The notes beneath the pieces are model-generated. The model made no database searches and was not told where the DNA came from. It was given only the letters and a program-made list of their open reading frames with translations. Positions 8,360 to 51,494 of a DNA stretch of 64,000 nucleotides are shown here, in pieces. The DNA comes from a virus. The first letter of the stretch is position 1. Each line of letters starts with the position of its first letter. The position numbers were made by a program, and so were the translations under genes. Location: the IMG/VR virus record IMGVR_UViG_3300048587_001155, positions 12,534-76,533 of that record. One strand, given 5' to 3'.

Positions 8360-9595
8360 ATGCCACGTCAAACTACGACATATCGCGTATTAATTGCGTC
8401 ACCTTCGGATTGTGAAGAAGAACGAAGATTAGTTCCAGAAGTCATAAGTGACTGGGTTGATGGCCATTCGTTGTCGCTCGATATCACCGTATTGCCTGTC
8501 AAATGGGAGACGAATTCGGTCCCAGAATTAGGAGAGAAGGGCGCTCGGCCACAGGGAATAATCAACAGTCAACTTATCAAAGACTCCGATATTCTTGTCG
8601 CGATCTTTTGGAGCCGCCTCGGAACTCCGACAGGAAAAGCAGATTCCGGTACGATCGAAGAAATCGAGGAATTCCGAAAGGCCGGCAGACCGGTTCTCGT
8701 CTACTTTTCCCAAAAACCGGTACCAAACAATGTCGATACATCTCAGCTCGAAAAGCTTCGCGAATACCGCGAACAAATTCGGCACGAAGGAATTTGTTTT
8801 GATTATCATTCGCTCGAGAATCTGCGAAACCTTCTATCCAAGCACTTAAACAGAGTGATCACCGAGCTTCATGAAGTCCATAAGCTGAGTCTCAAAAATC
8901 CTGTTAACGCAGAACCTATGGACGAGAGGCTAAAACGCTTTCGTGAATTCGCAGACGAGTTCGACTCTTTTCTTCGTGGATTCGAACTGAAATGGCACGC
9001 CGAACAAGAGGTCAGGCAGATCAATTTAAACAACGGAAAATCCCATTTATTAAGTGCGTATGATCACGTTCACACATTGACCAGCCGCATCAAGTTTGGG
9101 TTAGATGAGATCAAAGAGCCATTGAAAGAAATATTAGTGAAGATTCGACAATTGCAGGACCATCACCTATTCGCGGACGGTGGCAGATCCATGGCTGAGT
9201 TCTGGGAACATGGCAATGAGATCATCAAAGACTTGCATGGCATATCCGGCAAAATCCGTGTACTGGAAAGACGATTGCTAGAACCTCAATCTGAAATCCC
9301 GCCCAATGCGCATCCCAATGACAGAGGCGTATCATTGTCAGAGCTTGCGGCAGAAATCATTCGTGAGGCGGTGAAAGATAAGAACGGAATGATTTTGGCG
9401 TATGGCCTGTTGGATGGCTGGCATGTGGCCACTAATCAACTCGACTTTGTTGAACCTGATGATCCTCGAAGTGAAGCAAAAGCACGCGCCGCGATAAAAG
9501 AACTTCAAGCAAATGGTTTAATCGAGCAGCGCGGAAAAGAGTCGTACGGAGTCACAGCGGCTGGCTTTGACTGGACCGACAAACAAAATCCCTGA
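8360..9595 (+). CDS. DUF4062-like (NDT/TIR-like nucleotidase fold) protein with helical and wHTH-like C-terminus
   Basis: YRVLIASPSD.EEER, WE, PQ.IIN, SDILVAIFWSRLGTPT, SGT.EE, VYFS; SD GGAGG precedes ATG 8360. Confidence 0.8.
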   Translation: MPRQTTTYRVLIASPSDCEEERRLVPEVISDWVDGHSLSLDITVLPVKWETNSVPELGEKGARPQGIINSQLIKDSDILVAIFWSRLGTPTGKADSGTIEEIEEFRKAGRPVLVYFSQKPVPNNVDTSQLEKLREYREQIRHEGICFDYHSLENLRNLLSKHLNRVITELHEVHKLSLKNPVNAEPMDERLKRFREFADEFDSFLRGFELKWHAEQEVRQINLNNGKSHLLSAYDHVHTLTSRIKFGLDEIKEPLKEILVKIRQLQDHHLFADGGRSMAEFWEHGNEIIKDLHGISGKIRVLERRLLEPQSEIPPNAHPNDRGVSLSELAAEIIREAVKDKNGMILAYGLLDGWHVATNQLDFVEPDDPRSEAKARAAIKELQANGLIEQRGKESYGVTAAGFDWTDKQNP

Positions 9596-9599
9596 TGAA

Positions 9600-9624
9600 C
9601 TAAATTTAGCTCCCTCACTAAACC
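9600..9624. repeat. 25-bp direct repeat, copy 1 (CTAAATTTAGCTCCCTCACTAAACC)
   Basis: 23/25 identical to 11636-11660; begins with the 10-bp palindrome CTAAATTTAG. Confidence 0.85.
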
Positions 9625-9806
9625 AGAAACTGCGAGGTAACTAACGTCGAGGCCCCCGGCAAAAGGGGATCTCAGTAGAAAATAAATTCGGCATCGGAGG
9701 CGCGATACGATGGCTCGAAGTTTGATCCGTCGAAATTTTCGCCGGCTCCGTCGGTTACTCGCTCAAGCCTGTCGACCAACTAAGTCAGGATCACCGGAGA
9801 GTCAGC

Positions 9807-10262
9807 GTGTGCGTTCACCATGAAGACACAGTCCCCGGCCCTGTCCATCCTCACCATACAGCCATCAACAACAGGTGCTATTTCTTTTACGACAAGCACC
9901 ACAGGCCAGCCAACGTCGACGATGCTCAGTGGCTACCCGGCCTTCCGTCGGCAGAGGAATTTGGTGTGTTCGAGCGAGCGAATGAGCACGATCTGTCCAC
10001 CAATGGGGGGGACTTGTTCGGCCTACGAATCCGAGAGGGACTAGTTTTGGAACTCGGGATGTTCGGCGAGCAGGTAGCCAAGTTCCCGTTCGTCTGTGGC
10101 AACATGCCGTGGCACGGGTTTCCACACTGGCCCTTAGCCACGAACGGTCTTGCTGGCGGCCGCACGTATCCACCTCCGCGGAAAGTTCTGAAAAAAATGG
10201 AAGCGGTCGGACTCATTACCGCCACGCAGCGAAGGCGGCTTGAATCTGGAAAGCACGTATGA
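9807..10262 (+). CDS. Hypothetical protein (WHGFP motif, possibly toxin-like)
   Basis: 151-aa ORF coupled by an ATGA overlap to the next gene. Confidence 0.65.
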   Translation: MCVHHEDTVPGPVHPHHTAINNRCYFFYDKHHRPANVDDAQWLPGLPSAEEFGVFERANEHDLSTNGGDLFGLRIREGLVLELGMFGEQVAKFPFVCGNMPWHGFPHWPLATNGLAGGRTYPPPRKVLKKMEAVGLITATQRRRLESGKHV

Positions 10263-14591: not shown

Positions 14592-14711
14592 CAACAGCGA
14601 CCGCGCCCCGTTCGCGGGGCGTGCTGCTCTTGCCATTCGGTAAGTGACGTTCCAGGGCGTCCTAGTCCTTGGACAGCGTGCGGCGCTGTGAGCCCGCGTG
14701 GGGTTCGATCC

Positions 14712-15590
14712 ATGCAATACACTGAGCGAGCGCGTGAATCTGCGGAGGCGATTGTTGAACAGTTCAAGAATCCCGCGAATCTACCAAAGGCCTTGGCGTC
14801 GATTTGGCTCGACATTTCGGACGATCGGCCCTGCGCCAAGTGGTCCTGGAATAACCGGTTTTTGGTCGCGTTGTTCGGCGGAGGAGATGCGCGAGGCTTT
14901 CGCCAGTGGCAGGAAGTAGGGCGCAGCGTGAAGAAGGGGGCGAAGAGTTTCGCCATACTTGCACCGAAAAAACGGATGATTTCCGTCAAAAATCCGGAGA
15001 CTGGCGAAGAGGAAAAGCGGGCCATCGTTACCGGGTTTACTCACGTTTCCGTCTTCTCGATCGACAACACCGAAGGCGAGCCGTTGCCGGTCAATGAAGA
15101 GCACAAGGCCTTTGTGCAATCGTTGCCGTTGCGTGAAGTCGCGGCATCGTGGGGACTCGACGTCGAATTGGTGAACGGGAAAGGGAGATTTCAAGGCTAC
15201 TACTCGTCGAGTCATTCCGTGATTGCCCTTTCGGTATCGAATCTTTCCACGTGGGCCCATGAGCTAATGCACGCGGCAGACGATCGGCGCGGCGCTCTTC
15301 AGAAGGAAGGGCGTGAAACACTCTCGTACATGGAAGGCGAAATCGTTGCCGAGTTAGGCGCGTCAGTTCTGCTGTCGATCCTTGGTCAATCTGTTGATGC
15401 CGATCTCGGAGGCGCTTGGCGCTACATCACGGCTTACTGTGAGAAGCACAAGCGTGAGCCGATCAGCGCTTGCTCGATGTTGCTTGATCGTATCTGCGGG
15501 GGAGTCGACTTGATCTTGCGGACCGCTGCGGAACTCGCGAGCACTCCGACGGAGGCTAACAACCAACAATTCGAGCGAATCGCGGTTTAA
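14712..15590 (+). CDS. ardC: ArdC-like antirestriction / ssDNA-binding protein with zincin-like domain
   Basis: WSWNN, GFRQWQEVGRSVKKGAK, VF...TEG; HELMH; E.VAELGA, YI..Y. Confidence 0.8.
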   Translation: MQYTERARESAEAIVEQFKNPANLPKALASIWLDISDDRPCAKWSWNNRFLVALFGGGDARGFRQWQEVGRSVKKGAKSFAILAPKKRMISVKNPETGEEEKRAIVTGFTHVSVFSIDNTEGEPLPVNEEHKAFVQSLPLREVAASWGLDVELVNGKGRFQGYYSSSHSVIALSVSNLSTWAHELMHAADDRRGALQKEGRETLSYMEGEIVAELGASVLLSILGQSVDADLGGAWRYITAYCEKHKREPISACSMLLDRICGGVDLILRTAAELASTPTEANNQQFERIAV

Positions 15591-16269: not shown

Positions 16270-16327
16270 CCTGGATGCCAAATGACTGTGACACTTACCA
16301 ATGAAGAGAAAGCGTGAGGTAATCCAC

Positions 16328-17596
16328 ATGGCGAAACCCCGTCGGGGGCGTGAGAAATCATCGCCCCTTCCGGCACGTCCGAAGGTCTACGGTTACGCGC
16401 GAGTGAGCACGTTCCGTCAGACGGGTCGACAATCGATCGATACCCAGCGTGAGCAGCTCAAGCTATTGGCAGAGCGAAACGGCTTGGGGCCGATCGATCA
16501 GATCTTCATCGATGAGGAAGCAAGCGGAGGAACGCCGATCGTCCAACGGCCGGCGGGGCGTGATCTTTGCTTCCTAGTCTCTCCCGAAGATGTTGTGCTG
16601 CTCACCGATCTTGACCGCGCGTTTCGTTCTACGTCGGACGCGCTCGAGACGTTATTGCGTTGGCATGCCGTCGGGATCCGCGTGATCATCCAATCCCTCG
16701 AGGGTTGGGGAACGCTCGACATCAGTACGCCGATCGGGGAGTTCTTTCTCACCGTTCTTGTAGCCGTGAAGAAGCTGGAACGAAATCAGCGCGTGGCCTT
16801 CGTGCAGCAATGCTCGCGCGATGCCATGCTCAAGGCCGAAGCCGAGGGATGGGATTGCACGAGTCGGCGGTACGCTCCTGTGGGCTTCGACTGGGCTTAC
16901 CTCGGATCGGACCGCGGGAAGACTCGTCTGGTTCCGAATGAGGACGATCTTGAAAGCATGTCGATCATTGGTGTGCTGCGAGCTCAGGGAAGGGCGTACG
17001 ACCAAATACGTGATGAGATCCTTCCCCAAATCGGGCGTGAGAAGAGACTTCGCGCTATCCGCCGACAGATCGGCAACAAAAGCATGAATCATCGGCGGTA
17101 TGAGATCAGACGTCATCAGAACGTGTGGCAATGGCACGCGATGGAAAAGGCCTGCGTGTGGTGTGAATCGCACCGTCAGGAACAGGAAGAACTGGCAACT
17201 AGGGTTGCATCAAATCACCCGGAATGGGCAAATCGTTGGGGGCTTGGGAACTATGTTCAAGGATTGGCGACGGAGACGAACGGCAACGATGGAAACGGAT
17301 TCGCAGGAACCGCGCCGCCACATGTTGAAGCGATCGGGGAAGGGGAACCCTCCGCTCGTTTTCCAGGGGATCTTGATTGCCGAAGTGACGGGCCCGAACT
17401 ACTCGGACGCGAAACGCTGGCACGATCTGCGCCTCTACCGAACGGTGAATCAACGGTATGTGGTGGAGATTGTGTTGGTGAAGGCAATTGCGGGCCAAAA
17501 GAGCCATCACTCGGCCGTGATGGTCGAGGATCTGACGGAGGCGAGGGAAGCCTTTTATTCTCACGATCCAATGCAAGGGATCGATTTCCCCAATAA
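16328..17596 (+). CDS. Serine recombinase (resolvase/invertase family)
   Basis: VYGYARVST, Q...L, DEEASG...RP, DLDRAFR, G.F...V......ER; C-terminal tail overlaps the next gene. Confidence 0.88.
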   Translation: MAKPRRGREKSSPLPARPKVYGYARVSTFRQTGRQSIDTQREQLKLLAERNGLGPIDQIFIDEEASGGTPIVQRPAGRDLCFLVSPEDVVLLTDLDRAFRSTSDALETLLRWHAVGIRVIIQSLEGWGTLDISTPIGEFFLTVLVAVKKLERNQRVAFVQQCSRDAMLKAEAEGWDCTSRRYAPVGFDWAYLGSDRGKTRLVPNEDDLESMSIIGVLRAQGRAYDQIRDEILPQIGREKRLRAIRRQIGNKSMNHRRYEIRRHQNVWQWHAMEKACVWCESHRQEQEELATRVASNHPEWANRWGLGNYVQGLATETNGNDGNGFAGTAPPHVEAIGEGEPSARFPGDLDCRSDGPELLGRETLARSAPLPNGESTVCGGDCVGEGNCGPKEPSLGRDGRGSDGGEGSLLFSRSNARDRFPQ

Positions 17597-35178: not shown

Positions 35179-36276
35179 CTAGCTGATCTTCTCGATCTTC
35201 GCCTGAGTCCGCGGACGACGAACTTGCAAGTTGCCCATGAAGTCGGCCACGATCGCGCCCGTTCGTTTGATCGCGCTGATCGGCTCGGCTTCGGCGTTGA
35301 ACAGCTGCCCTTGCATCGACAAGAGAGCCAACGTTCCGAAGTTGATGCCGAACCCGACGCCCGTTGGGACAGCAACGCCAGGCTGAGGCACGACGCTCGG
35401 TAGAACATCAACACCATCCATGTTGATGGCATCCTTGAACCCGAGCTGATAGACGTCCGAGTTCTTGTCGCTGACCACGATGCGCTCCTTCGCGCGCATC
35501 GCATTCTTGAAGTCGTCGAACATCTGCAAGTCGAGCAACACGAGATCGATTCGTTCCTCCTTCGATTCGTGCCGCATCTGGACACTCATGAGGTAGCTGA
35601 GAACCTCGAGGCAGTTATTCGCCCACGCGTTCCCATTCTTCCAGAAGACCGACGTGTAATTCAGGATGATGGGAGTCCAGAAGTCATACTCCTCTGTTCC
35701 CCACCCGCCGAGCGGCCACAAAGCGGCATCACTCCACGAGCCGCCATACGCCTGCCGCGCAAGGTTGATATTGGCATAGCTTCCGTTATTATCCGCCACG
35801 AGCGAATTCACAGTGGCCGTGCCAGCATGCTTAAAGATGGAGTTGTAACCGGTGATTCTCTGGGTGTTGCCCACAGCGTCGCCGTTGTACATCAGCTGTC
35901 GACCGAAATCGACCTTCAGATCTTCGATCAAGCTCTCGGTGTTATTGGCGAGCAGTGCCGTCAACGATTCCGGCGATCGATTCGCCAACGCATCGAGCTT
36001 GGTGTACAGATCGGAGATCACGTACGCCTTGTAATCGAGCTTCGCCCGACGGTGAAGCTGCGTACGGCTCAGGGTGACTTCTTCGGTGTCCGCGATCGGC
36101 GCACCCTTTCGACGACGGAACCGGACCGGCCAATCGAAGTCGGTACCGGCACAGTTGTACCGGATCCGTCCTCGCTTATAGAGCATCGCCGGAAACACCT
36201 GATTGGACATAATCGCCGGCTCGGCCCCTTTCAGGTGCTTCGTGATGACCGTCGCCGCTTGTTCAGCCCATGCCAC
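35179..36276 (-). CDS. Major capsid protein
   Basis: 365 aa after the scaffold gene; LMYNGD, ITG, GF......G C-terminal pattern. Confidence 0.75.
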   Translation of the reverse strand: MAWAEQAATVITKHLKGAEPAIMSNQVFPAMLYKRGRIRYNCAGTDFDWPVRFRRRKGAPIADTEEVTLSRTQLHRRAKLDYKAYVISDLYTKLDALANRSPESLTALLANNTESLIEDLKVDFGRQLMYNGDAVGNTQRITGYNSIFKHAGTATVNSLVADNNGSYANINLARQAYGGSWSDAALWPLGGWGTEEYDFWTPIILNYTSVFWKNGNAWANNCLEVLSYLMSVQMRHESKEERIDLVLLDLQMFDDFKNAMRAKERIVVSDKNSDVYQLGFKDAINMDGVDVLPSVVPQPGVAVPTGVGFGINFGTLALLSMQGQLFNAEAEPISAIKRTGAIVADFMGNLQVRRPRTQAKIEKIS

Positions 36277-37614: not shown

Positions 37615-38049
37615 TTACTTCACATGAGGGCTTCCGTACTTCTCTGTCACCATTTCGACAAGCTCTTGTCGAGGTAGAGAAGCTTTCGACGGGTCCATTC
37701 GTAGCTCATCAGAAATTGATTCGTCAATTAGATCCACTGCGAGCTTGACAGGCGGGGTCGGTTCTTTCTCCTCCGATCGGTGCTCGACAACCCCCTCGCA
37801 TTCAAGGTTTCTCTCTTCGCAGATTCGCTTGATGTGCCCCCGGTAATCGCTGGTATCGATATGGCAACCAAGCTGCTGCGAAAAGACCGTCGGCGTGTCG
37901 ATTCCACGTGTAATCGTGGCGTTTGTCTTGATCGTCGGATAATCCTTATGGGCGTGCATATGGGCGAGCCAAGGATCAAAGCCGTCAGCAACCATGCGGT
38001 CGAATTCCGCCTTTATCTCAGGCGTCCGGAAGCTGAATTCCTTGCTCAA
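37615..38049 (-). CDS. Hypothetical phage protein
   Basis: Overlaps the portal stop codon; 144 aa. Confidence 0.6.
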   Translation of the reverse strand: MSKEFSFRTPEIKAEFDRMVADGFDPWLAHMHAHKDYPTIKTNATITRGIDTPTVFSQQLGCHIDTSDYRGHIKRICEERNLECEGVVEHRSEEKEPTPPVKLAVDLIDESISDELRMDPSKASLPRQELVEMVTEKYGSPHVK

Positions 38050-39995
38050 GGTGCGTCTCCTTTCTTTTCTGCGGACGAACCGTTCGGATCATTTCCCTCT
38101 TCACCGGTGGGAGGCACGACCGGCGGGGCGGGAATAAGCTCTTGCATCGAGACGAGGTACTTGGACGGATCCAGACCTTGCGCCTTCGCCCAATCGGTGA
38201 GCAAGGCATTGATTTGATTGACCGCCTGCGGGGTGATTTGGAAGAACTGCATCAGGATCGGCAGGATCGTTTGCACAGAGGCGGTCATATTCGCTATTTG
38301 CTGCTCTTGATTCGGTTTCTTCACTGAGCCCGCTTCGATGCGGAAATCGAGTTCCCGCATGATTTGTTCGCGCGTTTGACTCCGAATCGTTTGGTTCCAT
38401 AGGAACGCTCCCGTCGTCCCGAGAACCGGCTGAATGTCCTTCTCTTCGAGGTGGTACCACGCCGCGAGGGCCTCCAAGCGGCTCACTTCGGTCATCCAAT
38501 CCTCGACCTGATTGGCCATCGCCGTGATGCGAATTTGCGAACGATCCCCCTTGAGCGAGGCCTCCTCGGCCGACCGCATCGCTCCCTGGCCATACATCAA
38601 CTCCATGAGGCCCGTACGGCGCTCGAAGAGCTGCATCATCAGATCCATGACTTTCCATAGATCCTGGTTCATCTCGGGGTGCTGAAGAAACTCAATCGAA
38701 TCCTTGATTGATTTGACCGTCCCGTCGACTTCCACCATCGTCAGGTCCGAACCGTTCTGAATGGCCGTTTTGAGGTTCTCTTCCAGCCCTGTCTTCATCG
38801 CAATAATGTCGCGCGACCGTTTGGCGATGCCGCTGACCAAGAACGAGAAGATCCAGTCAATGGCCTTCAGTTCAGAAAGAGCAGGGCGGATATGGCTCAT
38901 GGGCCACGGGGAACGGGGAACTTGATGGAAGTCGAGCAAGGCGAACGGCCATGATCCTTCCGCCCAGAAAGGGGTAGGCCAAGCCAGCCGATTGGCAATC
39001 TCCTCGACGTTCATGGTCTCCGGCTTATAGAGGTTCAAGAAGAAGTTCGAACCTTCCGTGACGACCAGATAAACGAAATCCCCGATCATCAGATCAATCG
39101 CATCCTCTTCCTCGGAGGAGTTCTCCTTTCCGACCAGCGAGGAGAGTCGGTACCCCAAACCGATCTTCGAGAAGATCTCGTAGAAGACGACGAGATCGGG
39201 GTTCGGCTTCTTACGATCCGTTTCCTTCGTGTCGGCGCTATTCGTTCCCGACATCGAACTATCGAGATCACCCTTCACTTCACCCGGAGGTAGCTCGAAT
39301 ACCTCCTCCACCTTCCACTTCGGCCAAATCCGCCGGCGAATGACGAATCCCGCATCCTGCAGGGTCTCGGTATCGGCATCAATCAAGAGATTGTCCACGG
39401 TGTCGAATGTGCTCGACACCATTCGCTGTTCCGAGTCCGGCCACGTGACGAGCTCCGTCCAAAGCACGCCACGTCCCTTGATCAACGCCTCGTCGACCGC
39501 AAGGCGCGCATGCGTCTTGAGTCCGCCTCCGATCATTTCGTTGGGAGTGTAGTTGAGATAGGCTTCCATCAGCCGCGCACGAACGCTTGCCACCGCTTCG
39601 CGCATCGTTCTCTCTTGCTGAACAATCTGGGCGTACTCAGGGCCATAGAGCAGCGCGATCGAATCGATCAAATCGGGGGATGGCCTAAGCGTGCACCGTC
39701 GGTTCGGATTCGCATGATACAGGTAGGGGCCGATCACACTTTTCACTTCGAACACTTTGTTGACGTTCCCGCGGAACATGGGCGTGGGGACGTTGGCATC
39801 CTCAGGAGCGAAGAACGAAGACACCTTCTTGCGAAAATCGCTATTGAAGATCTCGCCGGCGTTCCCCGTGTAAAAGTCCATGGCCGTTTTCGCGTCACTA
39901 TCGAACGGCTCTTTCGCCTCCTTTGCCTTCTTGACGCGCATTTGCCATCGCTTCACCAGTTCTTTGAAATTCGTCGGCTTACCCACGGGAGTCAC
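38046..39995 (-). CDS. Portal protein
   Basis: 649 aa after TerL; VNKV, EALIKGRG, G....MYG...RSAEEA, IEAGS. Confidence 0.8.
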   Translation of the reverse strand: MTPVGKPTNFKELVKRWQMRVKKAKEAKEPFDSDAKTAMDFYTGNAGEIFNSDFRKKVSSFFAPEDANVPTPMFRGNVNKVFEVKSVIGPYLYHANPNRRCTLRPSPDLIDSIALLYGPEYAQIVQQERTMREAVASVRARLMEAYLNYTPNEMIGGGLKTHARLAVDEALIKGRGVLWTELVTWPDSEQRMVSSTFDTVDNLLIDADTETLQDAGFVIRRRIWPKWKVEEVFELPPGEVKGDLDSSMSGTNSADTKETDRKKPNPDLVVFYEIFSKIGLGYRLSSLVGKENSSEEEDAIDLMIGDFVYLVVTEGSNFFLNLYKPETMNVEEIANRLAWPTPFWAEGSWPFALLDFHQVPRSPWPMSHIRPALSELKAIDWIFSFLVSGIAKRSRDIIAMKTGLEENLKTAIQNGSDLTMVEVDGTVKSIKDSIEFLQHPEMNQDLWKVMDLMMQLFERRTGLMELMYGQGAMRSAEEASLKGDRSQIRITAMANQVEDWMTEVSRLEALAAWYHLEEKDIQPVLGTTGAFLWNQTIRSQTREQIMRELDFRIEAGSVKKPNQEQQIANMTASVQTILPILMQFFQITPQAVNQINALLTDWAKAQGLDPSKYLVSMQELIPAPPVVPPTGEEGNDPNGSSAEKKGDAP

Positions 39996-40385: not shown

Positions 40386-42224
40386 TTATCTCAGATCCGG
40401 CCGTTTGTTGGGCGAAAGATCCACACCTCCTTTCTTTCGCGTTTTAGCGGCACGTTTCGCAAGTCTTGCCAGTATCGGATCGGAAAGATTATCCCGTCTG
40501 TGGCGGGGCCGAACGTACCTTGGTTGCCTTGCCGCGAAGTACTCGGCGCAGGTCACCAGGTGATTATCTTTGTCGACTCGCTTATCGGTCGGCTGACCAT
40601 CGGCCCGTTTCTGATAAACCTGTTTCGACATCTCCCAAACGAAGTTTTTGCACTTGTCCTTGTGGACCCGGAGGACGGGAGTATCCGTCTGTGGCCTCAT
40701 CTCGAGCCATTGCCGGAACGCTTCTTCGCGTCCCTTGATATCCCGGCTGCCGGGCCGAAATCCGTAACCGGTCGCGATCGCACGAAGCCCCTTCTTCCGA
40801 AACGCCCGCTCATACGACTCCTCGACCGATATCCCGGAACCGATTTGAGTTTGCCGGCCCATCGACATATCGATGATGAATTCCTGAAAAGTCTGATTCT
40901 CCGACTTTCGTTTCACCAAGTCAGCGAACTTGTCAGCCGACGCGCGCTCGAGATAAACCTCGTCGTAGAAGTGGACTTCGAACCCGAACTCCAGAGGAGG
41001 AATCGCGGCAAACAATCCAGCGGCACGCTGAACGCCAGGATCCACGATGAGGAAGCGACACCAGTCCGAGGGAATGGGAAAAGCATCGATAATGTGTCCA
41101 GGGACCGAAGGCATGCTCGGGCATTTGATTTCAGGAATGAATTCGGGATAGACCCGGAGGGCTCGGCGCCGCGATTTTCCCTCGTACCTGACCTCCCGTT
41201 CCGAAGGACTCAACTTCTTCCAGAATTCTTCTTTCGCTTGCTTGCTGATCGAAGGGTTGTCGTCGATGTGAAGAAAGATTTCGACACACGAATCATCGGA
41301 CGGATTGGCCGCACGATCGCGCATCTCATCGAGAACTTCAGTAGCCGTCTGCGGAGTGGCCGACCACTGGAAGAAACCGCCCACTCGATCGACACGTCCA
41401 CGCACCGCGACTTCCGGGTACCACTCCTCGTTGACGATTTCTTCGTCGAACCAAACGAGATCGTATTGATCACCCTGAGGAATATCGCCTTCCGATGATG
41501 CGAAGAAGATTTCCCAATCGTTGCGGAGTCGGATGCTTGCGGGTTGTCGGTCCCGTTTGTTGTACCAACTGATGTCCTTGATCATTCGAGGCGGGATGAG
41601 GGGAGGGGCAAGCTTCCATTCATCCTCGCGGCTCATATCAGAGCGATTACTGAACTTCACGGCCCGCCACTGCCCGGTTTCCAGATCGCGAATGATGCTG
41701 AACGCACCGGCGCGTCCGAGTTTCTTCCAGATGATGCGGCCGATATGAGGCCAATCCTTGCCGACGACGATCGCGGTTCCGCCGAACTCCGGGGTTCCGA
41801 GATATTTTCTCTGACTTGTTCCGCCATGGAGACCCTTGATCGTGCGAGGATGCTGACCGAGAACAACCTTTGCAAAGTTGGCCGTAGCGACCGTCGTCTT
41901 ACCCGAACGGTTCGAACCGATGATGGCGATCTCGGAAGCCTTCGATTTGAACACTTCCCGTTGGCCGGGATTGATCGGGGTGAAGAGTCGCCAACCCTCG
42001 ATACGGCGAGCGTTGAACTCTTCCATGATGAGCTGCTCGGTAGGAGTCAGCGTCGCATTCGGTGGAAGGTGTTGTCTCTCTTCGTCGAGCTTCTTGAGAT
42101 AGTTGGTTGCCTCTTCCGAAGCCTTGGGGGCTCGCTGACGGAAGGCCTCCATGAGTTGTTCAAGTTCAGCCGGATTCGTCTTCGGCTGTTTCTTCGGCCG
42201 ACCCGGTTTCTTCTTCGCTGCCAT
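40386..42224 (-). CDS. terL: Terminase large subunit
   Basis: Walker A GSNRSGKT, Walker B LVWFDEE, SATP, DNP, nuclease IVDPG and DKDNH. Confidence 0.92.
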   Translation of the reverse strand: MAAKKKPGRPKKQPKTNPAELEQLMEAFRQRAPKASEEATNYLKKLDEERQHLPPNATLTPTEQLIMEEFNARRIEGWRLFTPINPGQREVFKSKASEIAIIGSNRSGKTTVATANFAKVVLGQHPRTIKGLHGGTSQRKYLGTPEFGGTAIVVGKDWPHIGRIIWKKLGRAGAFSIIRDLETGQWRAVKFSNRSDMSREDEWKLAPPLIPPRMIKDISWYNKRDRQPASIRLRNDWEIFFASSEGDIPQGDQYDLVWFDEEIVNEEWYPEVAVRGRVDRVGGFFQWSATPQTATEVLDEMRDRAANPSDDSCVEIFLHIDDNPSISKQAKEEFWKKLSPSEREVRYEGKSRRRALRVYPEFIPEIKCPSMPSVPGHIIDAFPIPSDWCRFLIVDPGVQRAAGLFAAIPPLEFGFEVHFYDEVYLERASADKFADLVKRKSENQTFQEFIIDMSMGRQTQIGSGISVEESYERAFRKKGLRAIATGYGFRPGSRDIKGREEAFRQWLEMRPQTDTPVLRVHKDKCKNFVWEMSKQVYQKRADGQPTDKRVDKDNHLVTCAEYFAARQPRYVRPRHRRDNLSDPILARLAKRAAKTRKKGGVDLSPNKRPDLR

Positions 42225-45734: not shown

Positions 45735-45772
45735 AAGAAATGAAAGAGCCCGTCCCCCACGAGGAGACGGGC
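45735..45772 (-). terminator. Rho-independent terminator closing the protease/cytochrome operon
   Basis: GCCCGTC/GACGGGC stem followed on the minus strand by TCTTTCATTTCTT. Confidence 0.6.
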
Positions 45773-45849
45773 CATATCAAGTTTTATGTGCGGTACGGGA
45801 GTCACTCGACGGAAACGAGACGCCGAGCGACTCCCTATCAGGGTTTGAC

Positions 45850-46218
45850 TTATCGCGTGACGATCCGCTGAGTCGTTCTCGATCGATTCCCCAGAAAGGG
45901 CAGGCGGGAATTCTGAGTCGTCGTCGTGATCTTTTGGAACCTCGGCGCCGCGACTGCCTGGATCGGTGCCACCGCCGTCGAATAGGCTACATTCGCTTGG
46001 GCAACGATCGGCTGGAATTGCACCGGCGCCGCGACATAAGACGCAACGACAGGCTGCGCGATGACCGCCTGTGCGTATACCGGTTGTGCGATGACCGGCT
46101 GAGCCACAACGGCCTGTTGCACAATGGCTTGCCCTCCGCATCCCGCGAAAGATCGGCCCGGCACGATTGCCACAAGGCCGAGAACCAAAAGAGCAAAAAG
46201 CAGATGAAACGTCCTCAT
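45850..46218 (-). CDS. Small secreted protein with AQPV repeats
   Basis: Signal peptide MRTFHLLFALLVLGLVAIVPGRSFA; ATGA overlap with the upstream gene. Confidence 0.7.
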   Translation of the reverse strand: MRTFHLLFALLVLGLVAIVPGRSFAGCGGQAIVQQAVVAQPVIAQPVYAQAVIAQPVVASYVAAPVQFQPIVAQANVAYSTAVAPIQAVAAPRFQKITTTTQNSRLPFLGNRSRTTQRIVTR

Positions 46219-47009
46219 CGGAGAGGCTCCTTAAATCGAGTGTCGACGATCCCACGCAAATCACCTGACTTGCTCGGATGGGAGTCGTCGAGAATCTTCA
46301 GGCCGGGGGGAATTCGGAGGCGATAAGGAAGCGAGTTCGACTCACGCGCGGGCATCTCGCCGATGGCCGATCCGAAATCGACGAGTCGCCCGTTTTCATC
46401 GACTCTGCCAAATCGCCATAAGTTCGTCGAAGATTGCGATCCAGGCATAGGAGGGGCCGGCGTTGGCTTGGCTCCGGGAATCGCTTTCAGGGCCTCGAGT
46501 AATGCCTTCGGATCTTGCCCCATCCACTGGTCGAACAGAATAGATTCCTCATCCGACAGAGGCTGATCCGGAGGCATGCTTCCCATGCGAACCCGAGTGG
46601 CGATTAAGACCTTCGTCTTGACGTCGTACATCCCTTCCTGATCGAGACGAAGCCCCCCTTTGGCAGAATCACCACTGTGGCAGCTCGAGCACTTCGTCGT
46701 CATCAATTCCTGAATCTGCTCATCGAGAGGAGTCGATCCGATCCGCGGAGCCCCGCCGGTTGTTCCTGGCTGGCAGTTCGCCAAGGCCTGCTCGATTCGG
46801 GCGAGCCGCTCGTTCATCTCGTCCACCTTTCGGCCGGCGAGCAGATTCTCCCTTTCCTGGCCAACGACGTACGTCCAGAATGGATCCGGTACGGGGATGG
46901 TCACCGCACTGACGTAGGGTGTCACCGCTTGCACCTGCTGAACCGCACAAGCCTGTTGTCCGCACTGCGACGGAAGAAACGTGACCAAAAGGGTCGCTAA
47001 TAAAATCAT
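46215..47009 (-). CDS. Exported planctomycete-type cytochrome c (PSCyt1-like)
   Basis: Hydrophobic N-terminus; KCSSCHSGDSAKGGLRLD ... GSMPP.QPLS.EE...F.QW (CxxCH plus distal Met). Confidence 0.85.
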   Translation of the reverse strand: MILLATLLVTFLPSQCGQQACAVQQVQAVTPYVSAVTIPVPDPFWTYVVGQERENLLAGRKVDEMNERLARIEQALANCQPGTTGGAPRIGSTPLDEQIQELMTTKCSSCHSGDSAKGGLRLDQEGMYDVKTKVLIATRVRMGSMPPDQPLSDEESILFDQWMGQDPKALLEALKAIPGAKPTPAPPMPGSQSSTNLWRFGRVDENGRLVDFGSAIGEMPARESNSLPYRLRIPPGLKILDDSHPSKSGDLRGIVDTRFKEPLR

Positions 47010-48298
47010 GGTGCTACTGCCTCCACTTGATTGACGATCGCGATGGCATCCCCCAGCAGATCTTCCCAAGCCTGCCTACTGATTCCCTGACGCGCGAGCA
47101 GCGCCGCGAACGTCGCCAGGAGAATCCTCTTCCGCCGATACGGTGCGGATAGCTTTCCTAGATCCTCCACGGGAATACCAAGTTCAGTGGCCGCGATCTC
47201 TGGCGTTATCGGTTGATCCAGATATTGCACTGTCATCCGTCGAAATTCATGGGCGACCACTTCGGGCTTGAGGTTGCAGGCCTTCGATACCGCCTCGCCG
47301 AACCTTGCTTGATCCTTCGAAATCGTGTCCGCCAGATTGGTGAGGAATCGATCTTCAATTCGCTGCTGATTGTTCCGATCGTAGGTCTCGAGCTTAAGCG
47401 ATTTGCTGTTGATCATCGAAGAGACGTCATCCGTGAACGCGTTGATGCCGAGTCCGTGGCATCCGACACAGCTCCTCGCCGAGTAGATTTGCTTGTCCCT
47501 CGCCGTCGTTTCGTAGTCTTGGGCGATCGCGGCCGGGACGACTTGTACCGCGTTACCTTGACCGTCGGCGATGTAATACGCTTGCAAACCATTCGCGAGC
47601 GTCCAGATGAATTCCCCCGCGTCATGCTTCGATACCTCGAGGTTATCGATGATGTTGTCCTCGTCGAAATCGCTCAGATGATCCTGTGATTCCCACCAAT
47701 AGCCCGTGAGGGACGGGTACCGGATAAGCCGACGGTTGTGCAGCGCGACGGGCGACCGGAACTTCGAACCGTAGATATCCGCCTTCAGAGCAACCGCGTC
47801 GTCGATTCGAATTCGATAGGTCGATTGCACGTCGGCTAGTTTCCCGCCGAGCTTCAGAAACGAGTCATAGAACGGCTTGTCCGAGGAATACGTCAGGAAT
47901 CCCTCGAGACGAAGAACCGGGCTTACGGTCTGGAACGGATCACGCGTCGTCTTCGACAACGACCGCCAGACGGGAACGAATTCGTATCCGCGCTTTTGGG
48001 CGAGATTCTCCCACGCCGCGATATCCCATTCGTAATCCCGCAGATCGACGCGAAGGAGTGTATCGCTCACCTGAAATGGTCTGATGATCCTCGGCCGACG
48101 TGACAACGAGTTCACCCAGAACGAAGCGACCTCTCGCGCCGTTGCCCGTTGATCAGCTGGTATGGCGTAGAGGGAGAGGTACCGAATGAACGGTCGATCA
48201 CTCGGGGAGATTTGGAGCACGTCCACGAGGGACGCGTGGAGTTCACTTGCCGGGCTGGGGAGGCCTGCAAGCATCACGATCGAGAGGATGGCTATCAC
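47006..48298 (-). CDS. Exported protein with one CxxCH heme-binding motif
   Basis: Signal-like N-terminus; RYLSL, NSLS, RVDLRDY.W, HDAGE.I..L.NGLQ.Y, SCVGCH. Confidence 0.75.
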   Translation of the reverse strand: MIAILSIVMLAGLPSPASELHASLVDVLQISPSDRPFIRYLSLYAIPADQRATAREVASFWVNSLSRRPRIIRPFQVSDTLLRVDLRDYEWDIAAWENLAQKRGYEFVPVWRSLSKTTRDPFQTVSPVLRLEGFLTYSSDKPFYDSFLKLGGKLADVQSTYRIRIDDAVALKADIYGSKFRSPVALHNRRLIRYPSLTGYWWESQDHLSDFDEDNIIDNLEVSKHDAGEFIWTLANGLQAYYIADGQGNAVQVVPAAIAQDYETTARDKQIYSARSCVGCHGLGINAFTDDVSSMINSKSLKLETYDRNNQQRIEDRFLTNLADTISKDQARFGEAVSKACNLKPEVVAHEFRRMTVQYLDQPITPEIAATELGIPVEDLGKLSAPYRRKRILLATFAALLARQGISRQAWEDLLGDAIAIVNQVEAVAP

Positions 48299-48312: not shown

Positions 48313-49137
48313 CTACAGCGAGAACGTCTTCCCGTTGACGAGCAGGCTTCCTACTCCGACGCCTGACGGAATGTTGATGGTGATTTGACCCGTAGGCGTT
48401 GGACCGACCGGAGGGACTTTCGACGAAGGGCCATAAAGCGCCACCGCATCGGCGATATCCGCCGCGAGAGGCTGATAGACGTTGGCCGAGTAGATCGGAT
48501 TCATCAGCGCCTTCGCTTGATTCGCGGCAGTATGCCGGAACCCGATCGCATGGCCAATCTCGTGCGTGGCAACCGCCAAGAGGAGAATCGCGCCGTTCGC
48601 CGTGGTGACTCCGAACGTCTCATCCAGGTCGTAGACCTGATTGAGTTGAGTGTCCGGGCGTGCTCCGTCCGGCAGTTCACTCCATGCGAGAACCCCCATC
48701 GGTCCGTCGAATCCAGCTCGCTTTCCTTTCCCGGTCGTCATGATGACGTTGGCACCGGCCGCGCCCATGACTTCTATCGGCCTGAGTCCGCAGACCGCGC
48801 CCCATGCCGCCCACGCCTGTCGATACACCTGGCGAGCTTGGTCCGAAGTAAGACCGTTGGGAGTCGCCTGAATGTAATACTTGACGTCCATCATCGGCCA
48901 TTTGCAGCCAGCCGTGGTGATCGTCTGAATGTCCGGAAGGCCGCAACCGCACGTCATTCGCTTCAGAAAGGCACGCTGCGTAATGCTCCCGGCATTCCCG
49001 TCCTCAGTGAGCCCTTGGTAATGCTGAAAGGATTTGACCGCCTCTTCTAGCTCGCCATCTTTCTTCTTTTCGAAGAAGTCTTTAGCGAGATGACCGAGGG
49101 AGATCAGTCCATTGATCAATTGCAATTCCGTGAGCAT
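48313..49137 (-). CDS. Matrixin (M10A, MMP-like) zinc metalloprotease with pro-domain
   Basis: AVKSFQ...GL..DG....T (PGBD-like pro-domain), CGLPD cysteine switch, FDGPMGVLA, HEIGHAIGFRH, ALMNP Met-turn, D....LYG. Confidence 0.92.
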   Translation of the reverse strand: MLTELQLINGLISLGHLAKDFFEKKKDGELEEAVKSFQHYQGLTEDGNAGSITQRAFLKRMTCGCGLPDIQTITTAGCKWPMMDVKYYIQATPNGLTSDQARQVYRQAWAAWGAVCGLRPIEVMGAAGANVIMTTGKGKRAGFDGPMGVLAWSELPDGARPDTQLNQVYDLDETFGVTTANGAILLLAVATHEIGHAIGFRHTAANQAKALMNPIYSANVYQPLAADIADAVALYGPSSKVPPVGPTPTGQITINIPSGVGVGSLLVNGKTFSL

Positions 49138-49186: not shown

Positions 49187-49654
49187 TCACTTCTTGATGA
49201 GAAGCGGAATCAAGGTCGGACCGTACTGGACGATGAAGGTGAAGATCTTGTCCCAAGGAATATCCTTGAGAACCTTGAGGGCCTCCCGGCGGTCGACAAT
49301 CTCTGCCTGAAAGACAGGTCGAGCTTCATCGGACGTGTGGTTATCCACGAACGTCTGCATGGCTTCGACGAACTCAGGAATGAGCACCGTCGGCTGAGCA
49401 ATGAGGAATTGAACGTCCGGAGTGGCGATCGGTCCCGAGGGAGATCCATCAGCCGGCGGTTCCCCGACGAATAAATTGAGGCCGTAACCCCACAGAATGT
49501 GCAGATTCTTCAAGATCAAGGGGATGTTGTCGGTGATCTTCCCTTCCCGGAAGATCGCGAGCAGCGCCAAAGCCTCATTGATCGGAGGCTTGGTCGGATA
49601 CGGATAGTTGGTCGGTTCCGTGGTCGTCAATTCTTCGGTCTTATCCTGGGTCAT
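49187..49654 (-). CDS. Hypothetical membrane-associated protein
   Basis: YP..P...E...R...I...GY motif; amphipathic C-terminus IPWDKIFTFIVQYGPTLIPLL. Confidence 0.65.
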   Translation of the reverse strand: MTQDKTEELTTTEPTNYPYPTKPPINEALALLAIFREGKITDNIPLILKNLHILWGYGLNLFVGEPPADGSPSGPIATPDVQFLIAQPTVLIPEFVEAMQTFVDNHTSDEARPVFQAEIVDRREALKVLKDIPWDKIFTFIVQYGPTLIPLLIKK

Positions 49655-49672: not shown

Positions 49673-50014
49673 TCAAGACGAAGACTTCGGCAGAGATGTC
49701 TGAAGCTTCGCGATGACGGAACTCACTTCTCGGAAAGCAACCGTGTTGTCGGTGATCACCTGCTGTTGCGCGATCACCATATTCTCAAGCTTCGTCCGTA
49801 CCTCGTTCTCGAGCAGATCGATCCGTTTCCCCATCCGCTCCTCACGAGCCACCGATTGATTGGTGAAGTCGTCGAGCTGTTTCGTCGAACGAGCTATCTG
49901 ATCCTCCTCTCGTTTGGTCGCTCGATCGTGGTACACCTTGTTCTGCAGGAAATACGCGACGGCGATAAAGCCCAGAACGCCGTATTGCATGAGCACATCG
50001 GATCCACCATCCAC
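49673..50014 (-). CDS. Holin-like protein (N-terminal TM plus coiled coil)
   Basis: QYGVLGFIAVAYFL TM segment followed by heptad repeats; SD AAGGAG. Confidence 0.55.
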   Translation of the reverse strand: MDGGSDVLMQYGVLGFIAVAYFLQNKVYHDRATKREEDQIARSTKQLDDFTNQSVAREERMGKRIDLLENEVRTKLENMVIAQQQVITDNTVAFREVSSVIAKLQTSLPKSSS

Positions 50015-50413: not shown

Positions 50414-50668
50414 TTAGAAGAGAGTCCCGTCAGGATCTTTCGCTTTCTTCCCTGTAAACAGATCGCGAATCTTTGACGCGCGTTTGATGTAGGTTGCTAA
50501 TCTCTCTTCACGCTTTTCCGCCGCGTCCGCATTCGTTCTCGATCGTCCGGCTCCCGACCTCACTTCGTGCCCAAATACTGCTGTTTCCTCCCGATGAATC
50601 GATGCAGGAAGATTCCCCGCCCATTTGTTTGCCGACGTTGAACGATCAACACGCACAACCATCGCCAT
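50414..50668 (-). CDS. Small hypothetical protein
   Basis: SD AAGGA; 84 aa. Confidence 0.6.
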   Translation of the reverse strand: MAMVVRVDRSTSANKWAGNLPASIHREETAVFGHEVRSGAGRSRTNADAAEKREERLATYIKRASKIRDLFTGKKAKDPDGTLF

Positions 50669-50694
50669 GAGATTTCCTTTCCGCGAGAGTTAAC

Positions 50695-50883
50695 TTAGGC
50701 CTTCGATTCGAGTTTCTTTCCCACCTCCTCACAAAAGACGAGCACACTCATATCGTCCGACGCCGTCAGGGCATGCTCTAAGATTCTGGATTGGACCCAA
50801 AGAAGTGCCTCCCGGTAACCACTCTCATACAAGAGCACGCCACTGAGGGTTACTTCCCGTCGAGGAGCTTTCTTCTTTGCCAT
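50695..50883 (-). CDS. Small hypothetical protein
   Basis: ATG 2 nt after the upstream stop codon. Confidence 0.5.
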   Translation of the reverse strand: MAKKKAPRREVTLSGVLLYESGYREALLWVQSRILEHALTASDDMSVLVFCEEVGKKLESKA

Positions 50884-50885
50884 AA

Positions 50886-51080
50886 CTACTTCACTTTGAA
50901 CAGATTGCCGCACGGAATAAAGACGAGCTTCCCATTGATAAGTATTCCGTGATTCCGGCAACGTCTCGCGTGGCAGATGATGTGAACGGTTCCGAGGTAA
51001 TCGTGGTACGGCATCATCGAAGAGTAATGTTTGCCGTAGCGAATGCGGACCAACTGGCCTGGGGTGGGATTGGCAAGCAT
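50886..51080 (-). CDS. Small SH3-like beta protein (hypothetical)
   Basis: PGQLVRI.Y ... GTV ... H.I.I.G....IP.GNL. Confidence 0.5.
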   Translation of the reverse strand: MLANPTPGQLVRIRYGKHYSSMMPYHDYLGTVHIICHARRCRNHGILINGKLVFIPCGNLFKVK

Positions 51081-51415
51081 GGGGGGGAACCTTCGAATCG
51101 ACCGAGTCAAATCATTCTGTGAGCAATGCTGGCAGTCATCAAGGTCGAGTAACTCAGGGAGTTTGAATTCGACAGCGAACACTGGCAAGTTAAGAACATC
51201 CTGAATATTCCTGATGCGGTGAGCGATGCGGAGCCCATGCCCGAGCGTTCCCAACAGGCAGCATCGAAAGATCCGCAACCATTCGTTTCGTTTGGACAGA
51301 CTCCGTATCGCTCACACTCCTCAACGACACTTGCTTTGGTATCCTCCGAGCGAGCTGTGGCATTCAAGAATTTCCTCTCATAGAATCTCGTTCGGCAAGG
51401 CGGAGTAGCTACCGC

Positions 51416-51494
51416 CTCATGCACCGGCTCGGCGGCCTCAGCGTTCCAAACCTCGCGGAAGCCGCCGGCCGATGCTGCCATATGAGGTTTGGAA
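51416..51494 (+). promoter_or_regulatory. Long hairpin whose loop is complementary to the downstream SD (or decayed attC)
   Basis: Stem 51421-51475; TTCCAAACCTC (51444-54) is the reverse complement of GAGGTTTGGAA (51484-94), just before ATG 51497. Confidence 0.5.

Follow-up and report, generated by a model that had tools for sequence, protein, structure and literature searches.

A matrix metalloproteinase-like zymogen encoded by a temperate phage, a candidate latent lysis enzyme

Background

The complete architecture of matrix metalloproteinase (MMP) zymogens has been studied mainly in animals and plants. Here we describe a phage gene for a predicted protease that shares with the animal pro-MMPs (the proMMP-9 mini-zymogen, PDB 8k5v and 5ue3; proMMP-3, 1slm; proMMP-1, 1su3; proMMP-10, 9csx) a three-helix pro-domain of the PG_binding_1 type, the cysteine-switch motif xxCGxPD, the zinc-binding consensus HExxHxxGxxH and the Met-turn. 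The gene lies on the minus strand, at positions 48313..49137, of a 64,000-nucleotide stretch of viral DNA, the whole of which is hereafter called the window and which comprises bases 12534-76533 of the 76.5-kb IMG/VR record IMGVR_UViG_3300048587_001155, classed as a provirus.

Several described systems resemble this gene in one respect or another. On the prokaryotic side, karilysin of Tannerella forsythia (2xs4, 4r3v) is a matrixin whose catalytic domain shows comparable similarity to that of the phage protease (E 9e-15); it is a secreted enzyme, whereas the phage protease is leaderless. The latency of karilysin depends on a short pro-peptide that uses an aspartate, not on a cysteine-switch pro-domain of the peptidoglycan-binding domain (PGBD) type, and the structural zinc is retained. 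Virus-encoded matrixins are known from insect DNA viruses (granulovirus, ascovirus, entomopoxvirus and iridovirus), where they are secreted and degrade the basement membrane or tissue of the host; these are enzymes of eukaryotic viruses and are unrelated to bacterial lysis. The modular endolysins with an N-terminal PG_binding_1 domain (phiKZ gp144 type) and LysB are, like the phage protease, leaderless proteins in which PG_binding_1 precedes the catalytic domain, and the genes of these endolysins likewise lie upstream of the packaging genes, with those of small membrane proteins beside them. In Listeria, the prophage-derived metzincin Mtz cleaves a TIMP-like lipoprotein partner, Tim, and sensitises the cells to lysins (Boichis et al. 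2021, PMC8235301); Mtz carries a Sec signal peptide, and the terms pro-domain, propeptide and cysteine do not occur in that paper. A recent survey of MMP evolution covers cellular lineages only and mentions neither phages nor pro-domains nor peptidoglycan (Parsons and Fournier 2025, PMC12587646). M10 is absent from the catalytic domains reported in two endolysin surveys, and we found no description of a phage pro-matrixin in the searchable literature.

Results and discussion

A complete pro-matrixin encoded by a phage

The preliminary description of this DNA, which was made from the letters alone, presented the gene product as a complete MMP-type zymogen with a cysteine switch, encoded by a phage and devoid of a signal peptide. 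An AAAGGG Shine-Dalgarno-like site is located about 6 nucleotides 5' of the start codon, and the gene comprises the following features (window coordinates throughout).

48313..49137, minus strand: pro-matrixin open reading frame, 274 amino acids (aa), ATG start, no signal peptide
48970..49107, minus strand: core of the PG_binding_1-like pro-domain, residues 11-56, a three-helix bundle in the model (Pfam; E 3.1e-8 in a six-frame search)
48931..48951, minus strand: cysteine-switch motif CGCGLPD, residues 63-69, switch residue Cys65 (aligned to PRCGVPD of proMMP-9)
48430..48903, minus strand: matrixin catalytic domain, residues 79-236 (full Pfam M10 profile; catalytic domains of MMPs and karilysin at E 1e-14 to 1e-16)
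48532..48564, minus strand: zinc-binding consensus HEIGHAIGFRH, residues 192-202, with His192, Glu193, His196 and His202 (read from the sequence)
48496..48510, minus strand: Met-turn ALMNP, residues 210-214, with Met212 (read from the sequence)
48316..48429, minus strand: Pro-rich linker and small C-terminal beta-hairpin, residues 237-274, common to the family (family alignments)

Every motif invoked in the preliminary description is present in the translation: besides the PGBD-like pro-domain, CGCGLPD, HExxHxxGxxH and ALMNP, these are KW (within CKWP, residues 78-81), FDGPMGVLA (143-151) and LYG (234-236). The Pfam Peptidase_M10 profile is matched over its full length (positions 1-159 of 159; E 1.5e-18, 67.6 bits with a cut-off of 24) and PG_binding_1 is matched by residues 11-56 (E 2.4e-6, 28.1 bits with a cut-off of 23); there is no match for the protease in PHROGs. 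A phmmer search of the PDB sequences retrieved MMP-11, proMMP-9, karilysin, proMMP-1 and proMMP-3 at E-values of 1e-13 to 1e-16, and the alignment with proMMP-9 (E 1e-15) spans residues 33-237 of the query and brings Cys65 onto the switch cysteine of PRCGVPD.

The AlphaFold2 (AF2) model of the protease, built with 133 family sequences, has a predicted local distance difference test score (pLDDT) of 93.1 and a predicted template modelling score (pTM) of 0.84. The pro-domain helices in this model comprise residues 4-13, 29-40 and 51-62, and the strands of the C-terminal hairpin (264-267 and 270-273) are modelled at a lower pLDDT, 55-80. In the PDB, the top Foldseek matches are without exception pro-enzymes (proMMP-9, -3, -1 and -10, with about 240 aligned columns), the target-normalised template modelling (TM) scores being 0.82-0.85 for the pro-catalytic units and 0.47 for the 415-residue proMMP-1 chain, which holds a further domain; PDB entries that contain the catalytic domain only score below the pro-enzymes. 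The best structural matches in BFVD are mainly insect-virus MMPs, along with a few uncharacterised entries from uncultured phages. Given the Pfam, phmmer and AF2/Foldseek results, the zymogen architecture holds at the level of sequence and predicted fold, and the phage genes on the same strand bear out the phage origin claimed for it. The possibilities of a chance reading frame and of a pseudogene were considered and rejected, the former because the Pfam, alignment and fold signals are far above chance, the latter because the frame is intact and the catalytic residues are conserved.

Comparison with the animal pro-MMPs, to which the phage protease is 22-29% identical, reveals the same relative placement of the pro-domain and the catalytic domain. 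Unlike the animal enzymes, the phage protease lacks a signal peptide, the structural-zinc ligands (by alignment) and the hemopexin or fibronectin domains, ends in a short Pro-rich tail with a hairpin, and has the switch CGCGLPD instead of PRCGxPD. Opposite the structural-zinc ligands of MMP-9, namely His175, Asp177, His190 and His203, the alignment places a gap, Lys138, Trp152 and Val168, respectively; of 133 relatives, 106 have Trp and none has His at position 152, and position 168 is occupied by Arg, Lys, Met or Val. Judging by this alignment, the phage protease appears to be a single-zinc matrixin without the structural-zinc site of the classical MMPs. Thus, among the hallmarks of the matrixins (MEROPS M10A, PF00413), we find the M10 profile, HExxHxxGxxH with the Met-turn, and the PGBD-like pro-domain with the cysteine switch, and do not find the second zinc site (three His and one Asp in the S-loop, as far as the alignment tells) or the secretory signal peptide. 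On the latter point the hydropathy plot agrees with the preliminary description: there is no hydrophobic N-terminal segment in the protease, nor in any of 80 viral copies, and such an N-terminus occurs in 3 of 162 family representatives.

Conservation and distribution of the family

The switch cysteine and the catalytic residues are strongly conserved in the family. All 133 sequences have Cys65, His192, Glu193 and His202; His196 is present in 132, Asp69 and Pro214 in 125 each and Met212 in 111, and Gly199 is nearly invariant. The switch consensus of the family is [PR]-R-C-G-x-P-D, with the CGCGLPD form found in 7 of the 133 sequences; by a strict pattern, a switch-like motif is detectable in 104 of 162 relatives.

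A word-indexed search yielded 14 relatives of the protease, the best of them 95% identical, and an exhaustive search yielded 3101 cluster representatives at E<=1e-3, 935 of these at E<=1e-10; the best 150 relatives are mostly 250-320 aa long and have the same domain layout. In IMG/VR, at least 97 contigs encode relatives of the protease, and among the carriers, phages of ~200 kb form a large group, with direct terminal repeats in some of them and a switch that reads RRCGLPD. A tblastn search of 50,697 deposited phage genomes produced no relative at E<=1e-3. Among cellular genomes, the full zymogen layout was found at one locus only in a one-genome-per-species set; of 401 sampled Planctomycetota genomes, 8 contain a match at 1e-8, with the zymogen layout present only on the contig of the locus just mentioned, which is prophage-like (L084), and the remaining matches confined to catalytic domains within larger proteins. 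The many carriers in IMG/VR, together with the scarcity in cellular genomes, indicate that the pro-matrixin family seems to be mostly phage-borne. We also noticed a 1214-aa relative, P0049, which is matched in three stretches and has both a signal peptide and LAHA, the motif of the classical structural-zinc site; it is closer to the phage protease (E 5e-32) than any solved human MMP and may be a multi-domain MMP of the eukaryotic type.

Operon organization

The protease gene belongs to a minus-strand operon that lies just upstream of the genes for the large terminase subunit (TerL) and the portal; beyond the operon terminator come a gene for a 792-aa protein and then the packaging genes. In the order of transcription, with the protease gene in third place, the operon consists of the following elements.

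49673..50014, minus strand: 113-aa protein with an N-terminal transmembrane segment and a coiled-coil-like tail, a holin or i-spanin candidate (hydropathy; only weak PHROG matches of unknown function)
49187..49654, minus strand: 155-aa protein with a C-terminal transmembrane segment, directly upstream of the protease (hydropathy; no family match)
47006..48298, minus strand: exported 430-aa haem-motif protein (cl37), the conserved downstream partner (CxxCH; AF2)
46215..47069, minus strand: exported small c-type cytochrome-like protein (sub-threshold matches to PSCyt1 and Cytochrome_CBB3)
45850..46218, minus strand: 122-aa lipoprotein-like protein with AQPV repeats and a signal peptide ending in FAGC, an o-spanin candidate (hydropathy, N-terminal sequence)
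45747..45773, minus strand: terminator-like hairpin of 12 pairs (8 G-C) that closes the operon after the lipoprotein-like gene

The layout of the window recurs in L084, a contig of a Planctomycetota metagenome-assembled genome (MAG), and in L081 (3523-6475; low G+C). In L081, the protease gene is directly followed by a holin-like gene for a 111-aa protein with two transmembrane segments, and the haem genes by an overlapping pair, transmembrane plus lipoprotein-like, that resembles Rz/Rz1, ahead of the TerL, portal and capsid genes. The ~200-kb phages lack the haem partner and have, on the two sides of the protease, four or five small proteins with transmembrane segments or signal peptides, for which PHROGs gave no assignment; L075 and L077, where small transmembrane proteins also flank the protease, are similar to these phages. 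Over 15 representative loci, small transmembrane proteins make up 34 of the 86 genes within three positions of the protease versus 39 of the 255 genes at greater distances (Fisher p 5e-6, odds ratio 3.6). In a third group of phages (L066, positions 8659-9978, L068 and L071), a DUF5662 protein precedes a pro-matrixin of about 400 aa (M10 match of 4.8e-37 in L066); in L066 and L068, a trypsin-like serine protease with a signal peptide (cluster 92), not found in L071, is encoded between the two, so that these modules contain two proteases.

The haem-motif partner

The 430-aa haem-motif protein is encoded directly downstream of the protease in nine loci, namely the window and L065, L066, L068, L071, L074, L078, L081 and L084, and in the latter eight its start is within a few hundred bases of the protease. 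Among these loci, G+C varies between 37 and 62%, and the identity between the partner proteins is no more than 24-31%. The proteins P0002/P0164 and P0003/P0170 suggest two more such pairs of a protease and a haem protein. The small cytochrome also follows the partner in all five loci that were checked for it (L066, L068, L071, L078 and L081), and in some metagenomic and Planctomycetaceae proteins (P0183, P0185) a cytochrome domain is fused to the 430-aa partner.

The CxxCH motif of the partner is invariant in 29 sequences. The AF2 model of the partner (pLDDT 90, pTM 0.90) had no Foldseek match in the PDB; in an exhaustive structural alignment, residues ~150-330, which include the haem motif, came nearest to cytochrome c'-beta and P460, the top five rows having Z-scores of 4.5-6.5 and this particular resemblance a middling 5.4-6.5. 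The modelled central domain may thus resemble cytochrome c'-beta/P460, which we regard as a lead only, and the overall predicted fold is apparently new. A language-model search with the partner retrieved mainly hypothetical viral clusters and, more distantly, planctomycete PSCyt1 proteins.

The phage and its probable host

Apart from the protease operon, the window contains the following genes that bear on the nature of the element.

40386..42224, minus strand: large terminase subunit (phrog_2, 6e-14; Terminase_6N, 8.7e-7)
38046..39995, minus strand: portal protein (phrog_156, 3e-5)
35179..36276, minus strand: major head protein, on the same strand as the protease
16301..17596, plus strand: serine recombinase of 431 aa (Resolvase domain, 2e-23, by domain match)
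14688..15590, plus strand: ArdC-like anti-restriction protein with a zincin-like domain, noted in passing

Tail-like genes are on the protease strand as well. The serine recombinase is probably the integrase of a temperate phage; the provirus classification of the record and the presence of this recombinase indicate that the source phage is temperate. The host is probably a planctomycete, as suggested by three observations: the weak PSCyt1 match of the downstream cytochrome, the fact that both the protease and its partner have their best cellular relative on a contig of a Planctomycetota MAG, together with TerL and portal genes, and the occurrence of fused forms of the partner in a protein named Planctomycetaceae.

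The G+C content is 0.55-0.60 over approximately 10-50 kb of the window and ~0.49-0.53 on either side. A relative from a pond metagenome is ~97% identical over 32.0-50.6 kb, and the likeness stops near 50.7-51.4 kb. Since the likeness to the pond relative ends there and the G+C content drops, a boundary of a module or element is likely at window positions ~50600-51450, a divergent intergenic region between the minus-strand late genes and plus-strand genes. Short contigs from two runs that are labelled metatranscriptomic, and are probably DNA, cover both the structural genes and the protease operon.

Functional prediction and alternative explanations

The protease gene sits among genes for small membrane proteins, which is the usual position of an endolysin gene and makes its product a good candidate for a latent lysis enzyme. 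We lean, if only slightly, towards the view that the protease is such an enzyme, the endolysin or endolysin-equivalent of the phage. The view draws directly on the architecture, the predicted zymogen fold, the invariant switch and catalytic residues, the lack of a leader, the cassette-like context and the lack of a recognisable endolysin. In the mechanism that we infer, the protease, in which a three-helix PG_binding_1-type pro-domain is followed by the cysteine switch, a predicted single-zinc catalytic domain and a short C-terminal hairpin, would be made late in infection and, having no export signal, would accumulate folded and harmless in the reducing cytoplasm, with the thiolate of Cys65 capping the catalytic zinc held by His192, His196 and His202. 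Holin-like neighbouring small membrane proteins would permeabilise the inner membrane and let the protease into the envelope, where oxidation or proteolysis would open the switch. Docked on the sacculus through its PG-binding domain, the protease would cut stem or cross-link peptides of murein, or murein-tied proteins.

The preliminary description had also seen an endolysin equivalent in this gene, a latent protease activated by redox or cleavage, dependent on a holin for export and directed against a protein wall, S-layer or matrix. It had mentioned neither the apparent loss of the structural-zinc site nor the large phage family, often accompanied by a haem protein, to which the gene belongs. 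The position expected of a lysis enzyme stands, with a terminator-closed operon upstream of TerL and portal, transmembrane neighbours and no recognisable endolysin. The proposed target is not supported: no targeting domain is present besides a bona fide PG_binding_1, and such a domain speaks for murein, or for proteins attached to murein, over an S-layer or protein wall. With the endolysins, the protease shares a wall-binding domain and the lack of a signal peptide; where a known murein-hydrolase domain would be expected, only M10 is found. In contrast to the modular endolysins, the catalytic domain is a metzincin and belongs to no known class of murein hydrolases, and the PG-binding domain doubles as an inhibitory pro-domain with a putative zinc-capping cysteine.

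Other endolysins were sought by six-frame family searches of the record from which the window comes and 19 other protease-bearing viral records, 10 of the 20 being at least 95% complete. There were no matches to Phage_lysozyme, Amidase_2, Amidase_3, SLT, Peptidase_M15_4, Peptidase_M15_3 or GH25 in the 20 records, and none to Peptidase_M23 in the window record. PG_binding_1 has one match each in 19 of the 20 records, which in every case is the protease gene. In L008 (15550-19968) and at the equivalent places of the ~200-kb phages, proteins of ~1470-1490 aa with sub-threshold similarity to Peptidase_M23 are encoded 5 kb downstream of the protease; these may be virion lysins of the tape-measure type.

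Several points weigh against the interpretation as a lysis enzyme. We know of no M10 enzyme that cleaves peptidoglycan, the stems of which contain D-residues and iso-peptide bonds. The absence of endolysins according to Pfam is negative evidence in very divergent phages, consistent as it is across lineages; GH19 and GH108 also had no matches in the 20 records, but their controls were silent, so that this result carries little weight. Sub-threshold Peptidase_M23 stretches do occur: seven records of the ~200-kb group have them, in frames of ~620-660 aa and 1480 aa, and so does the record G003, within a frame of 391 aa. The small transmembrane proteins near the protease match no known holin or spanin family, and the lineages in the enrichment test are not independent, several of them sharing synteny. 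Finally, the three partner proteins of the operon are Sec-exported and the protease is leaderless, and a terminator of its own closes the operon, a frequent feature of moron cassettes.

An alternative is an accessory lysis factor: a PG-docked protease that cuts the proteins by which the sacculus is tied to the outer membrane or to a protein layer, with murein hydrolysis left to a separate, unrecognised enzyme; we judge this to be rather unlikely. Matrixins are endopeptidases of proteins and peptides, the context of a lysis cassette would be the same, and the mycobacteriophage LysB, a functional analogue of such a factor, also has a PG_binding_1 domain. A novel murein hydrolase could be hidden among the several module genes without known function, and weak M23-like domains are detectable in large proteins of the ~200-kb phages; these proteins are, however, as large as structural proteins of the virion, a size that suits a role in entry and not in exit, and a search for ten families found no murein-hydrolase candidate in the window record.

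It is unlikely, and somewhat more so, that the operon is a module for envelope remodelling or lysogenic conversion, in which the protease would process the co-encoded exported partners or envelope proteins of the host. The phage is temperate by the evidence of the provirus record and the serine recombinase, the operon is closed by its own terminator, and the pairing of the protease with the haem protein is strict in nine loci despite the 24-31% identity of the latter, with the small cytochrome following in the window and five other loci. The precedent is the Listeria Mtz-Tim system, in which, as here, a phage-associated metzincin is encoded with an exported partner, and in which Mtz acts on the envelope (Boichis et al. 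2021, PMC8235301). The partner of Mtz is a lipoprotein of TIMP-like predicted structure, whereas that of the phage protease is the 430-aa haem-motif protein; the window does not have the arrangement of a Sec-secreted metzincin followed by a TIMP-like lipoprotein gene, its lipoprotein-like gene lying three genes downstream. Moreover, the putative substrates are exported and the protease has no export signal; the ~200-kb phages have the protease and transmembrane proteins without the haem partner; and three of their records have direct terminal repeats (no search for integration genes was made in these).

There is little to recommend a virion-associated or morphogenetic protease, whether ejected for entry or active in head maturation. 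A PG-binding domain would be in keeping with a role in entry, and in the ~200-kb phages the gene lies between portal- and capsid-sized genes and the tape-measure-sized gene for the ~1470-aa M23-like protein, but the neighbours in these phages have no PHROG assignment, in the window, L081 and L084 the gene lies upstream of the terminase and is not part of the block of head and tail genes, and its immediate neighbours encode small transmembrane proteins. The prohead proteases known to us are serine proteases. An auxiliary gene for the digestion of external animal-type matrix proteins, such as collagen, is highly improbable, and a secreted collagenase-type enzyme was rejected outright, because the protease has no secretion signal and occurs in a lysis-type phage context with a PG-binding domain, and the survey according to which bacterial MMPs target animal substrates leaves the phage copies out of account (Parsons and Fournier 2025, PMC12587646).

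The interpretation as a latent lysis enzyme also admits an extension that we offer as a long shot, namely that the whole MMP zymogen design is native to phage lysis, with the murein-binding pro-domain and the zinc-capping cysteine keeping a general protease harmless until its release by the holin, with the haem protein and the cytochrome, in phages of the window type, supplying a periplasmic oxidant that opens the switch, and with phages as a reservoir, and perhaps a vector, of the disputed transfers of MMPs between bacteria and eukaryotes. The idea of a periplasmic oxidant echoes the activation of animal pro-MMPs by haem-peroxidase and nitric oxide. It is a matter of speculation whether the exported haem protein, with its open coordination site, activates the thiol-latched protease beside which it is encoded.

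Conclusions

By sequence and predicted fold, the phage protease is a matrixin of the M10A type, apparently without the structural zinc and without a secretory signal, encoded in an endolysin-like layout and containing no known murein-hydrolase domain. If it is indeed the lysis enzyme, it would represent a new catalytic class of endolysins, a metzincin with a built-in safety catch, and would explain how phages without a recognisable murein hydrolase, including the ~200-kb phages and the probable planctomycete phages, escape from their hosts. Another lead is the conserved pairing with a haem protein whose overall fold is apparently new. The abundance of the leaderless, apparently single-zinc form of pro-MMP in phages suggests why the pro-domain of the animal enzymes resembles a peptidoglycan-binding domain, and phages thereby enter the debate on the origin of the MMPs.

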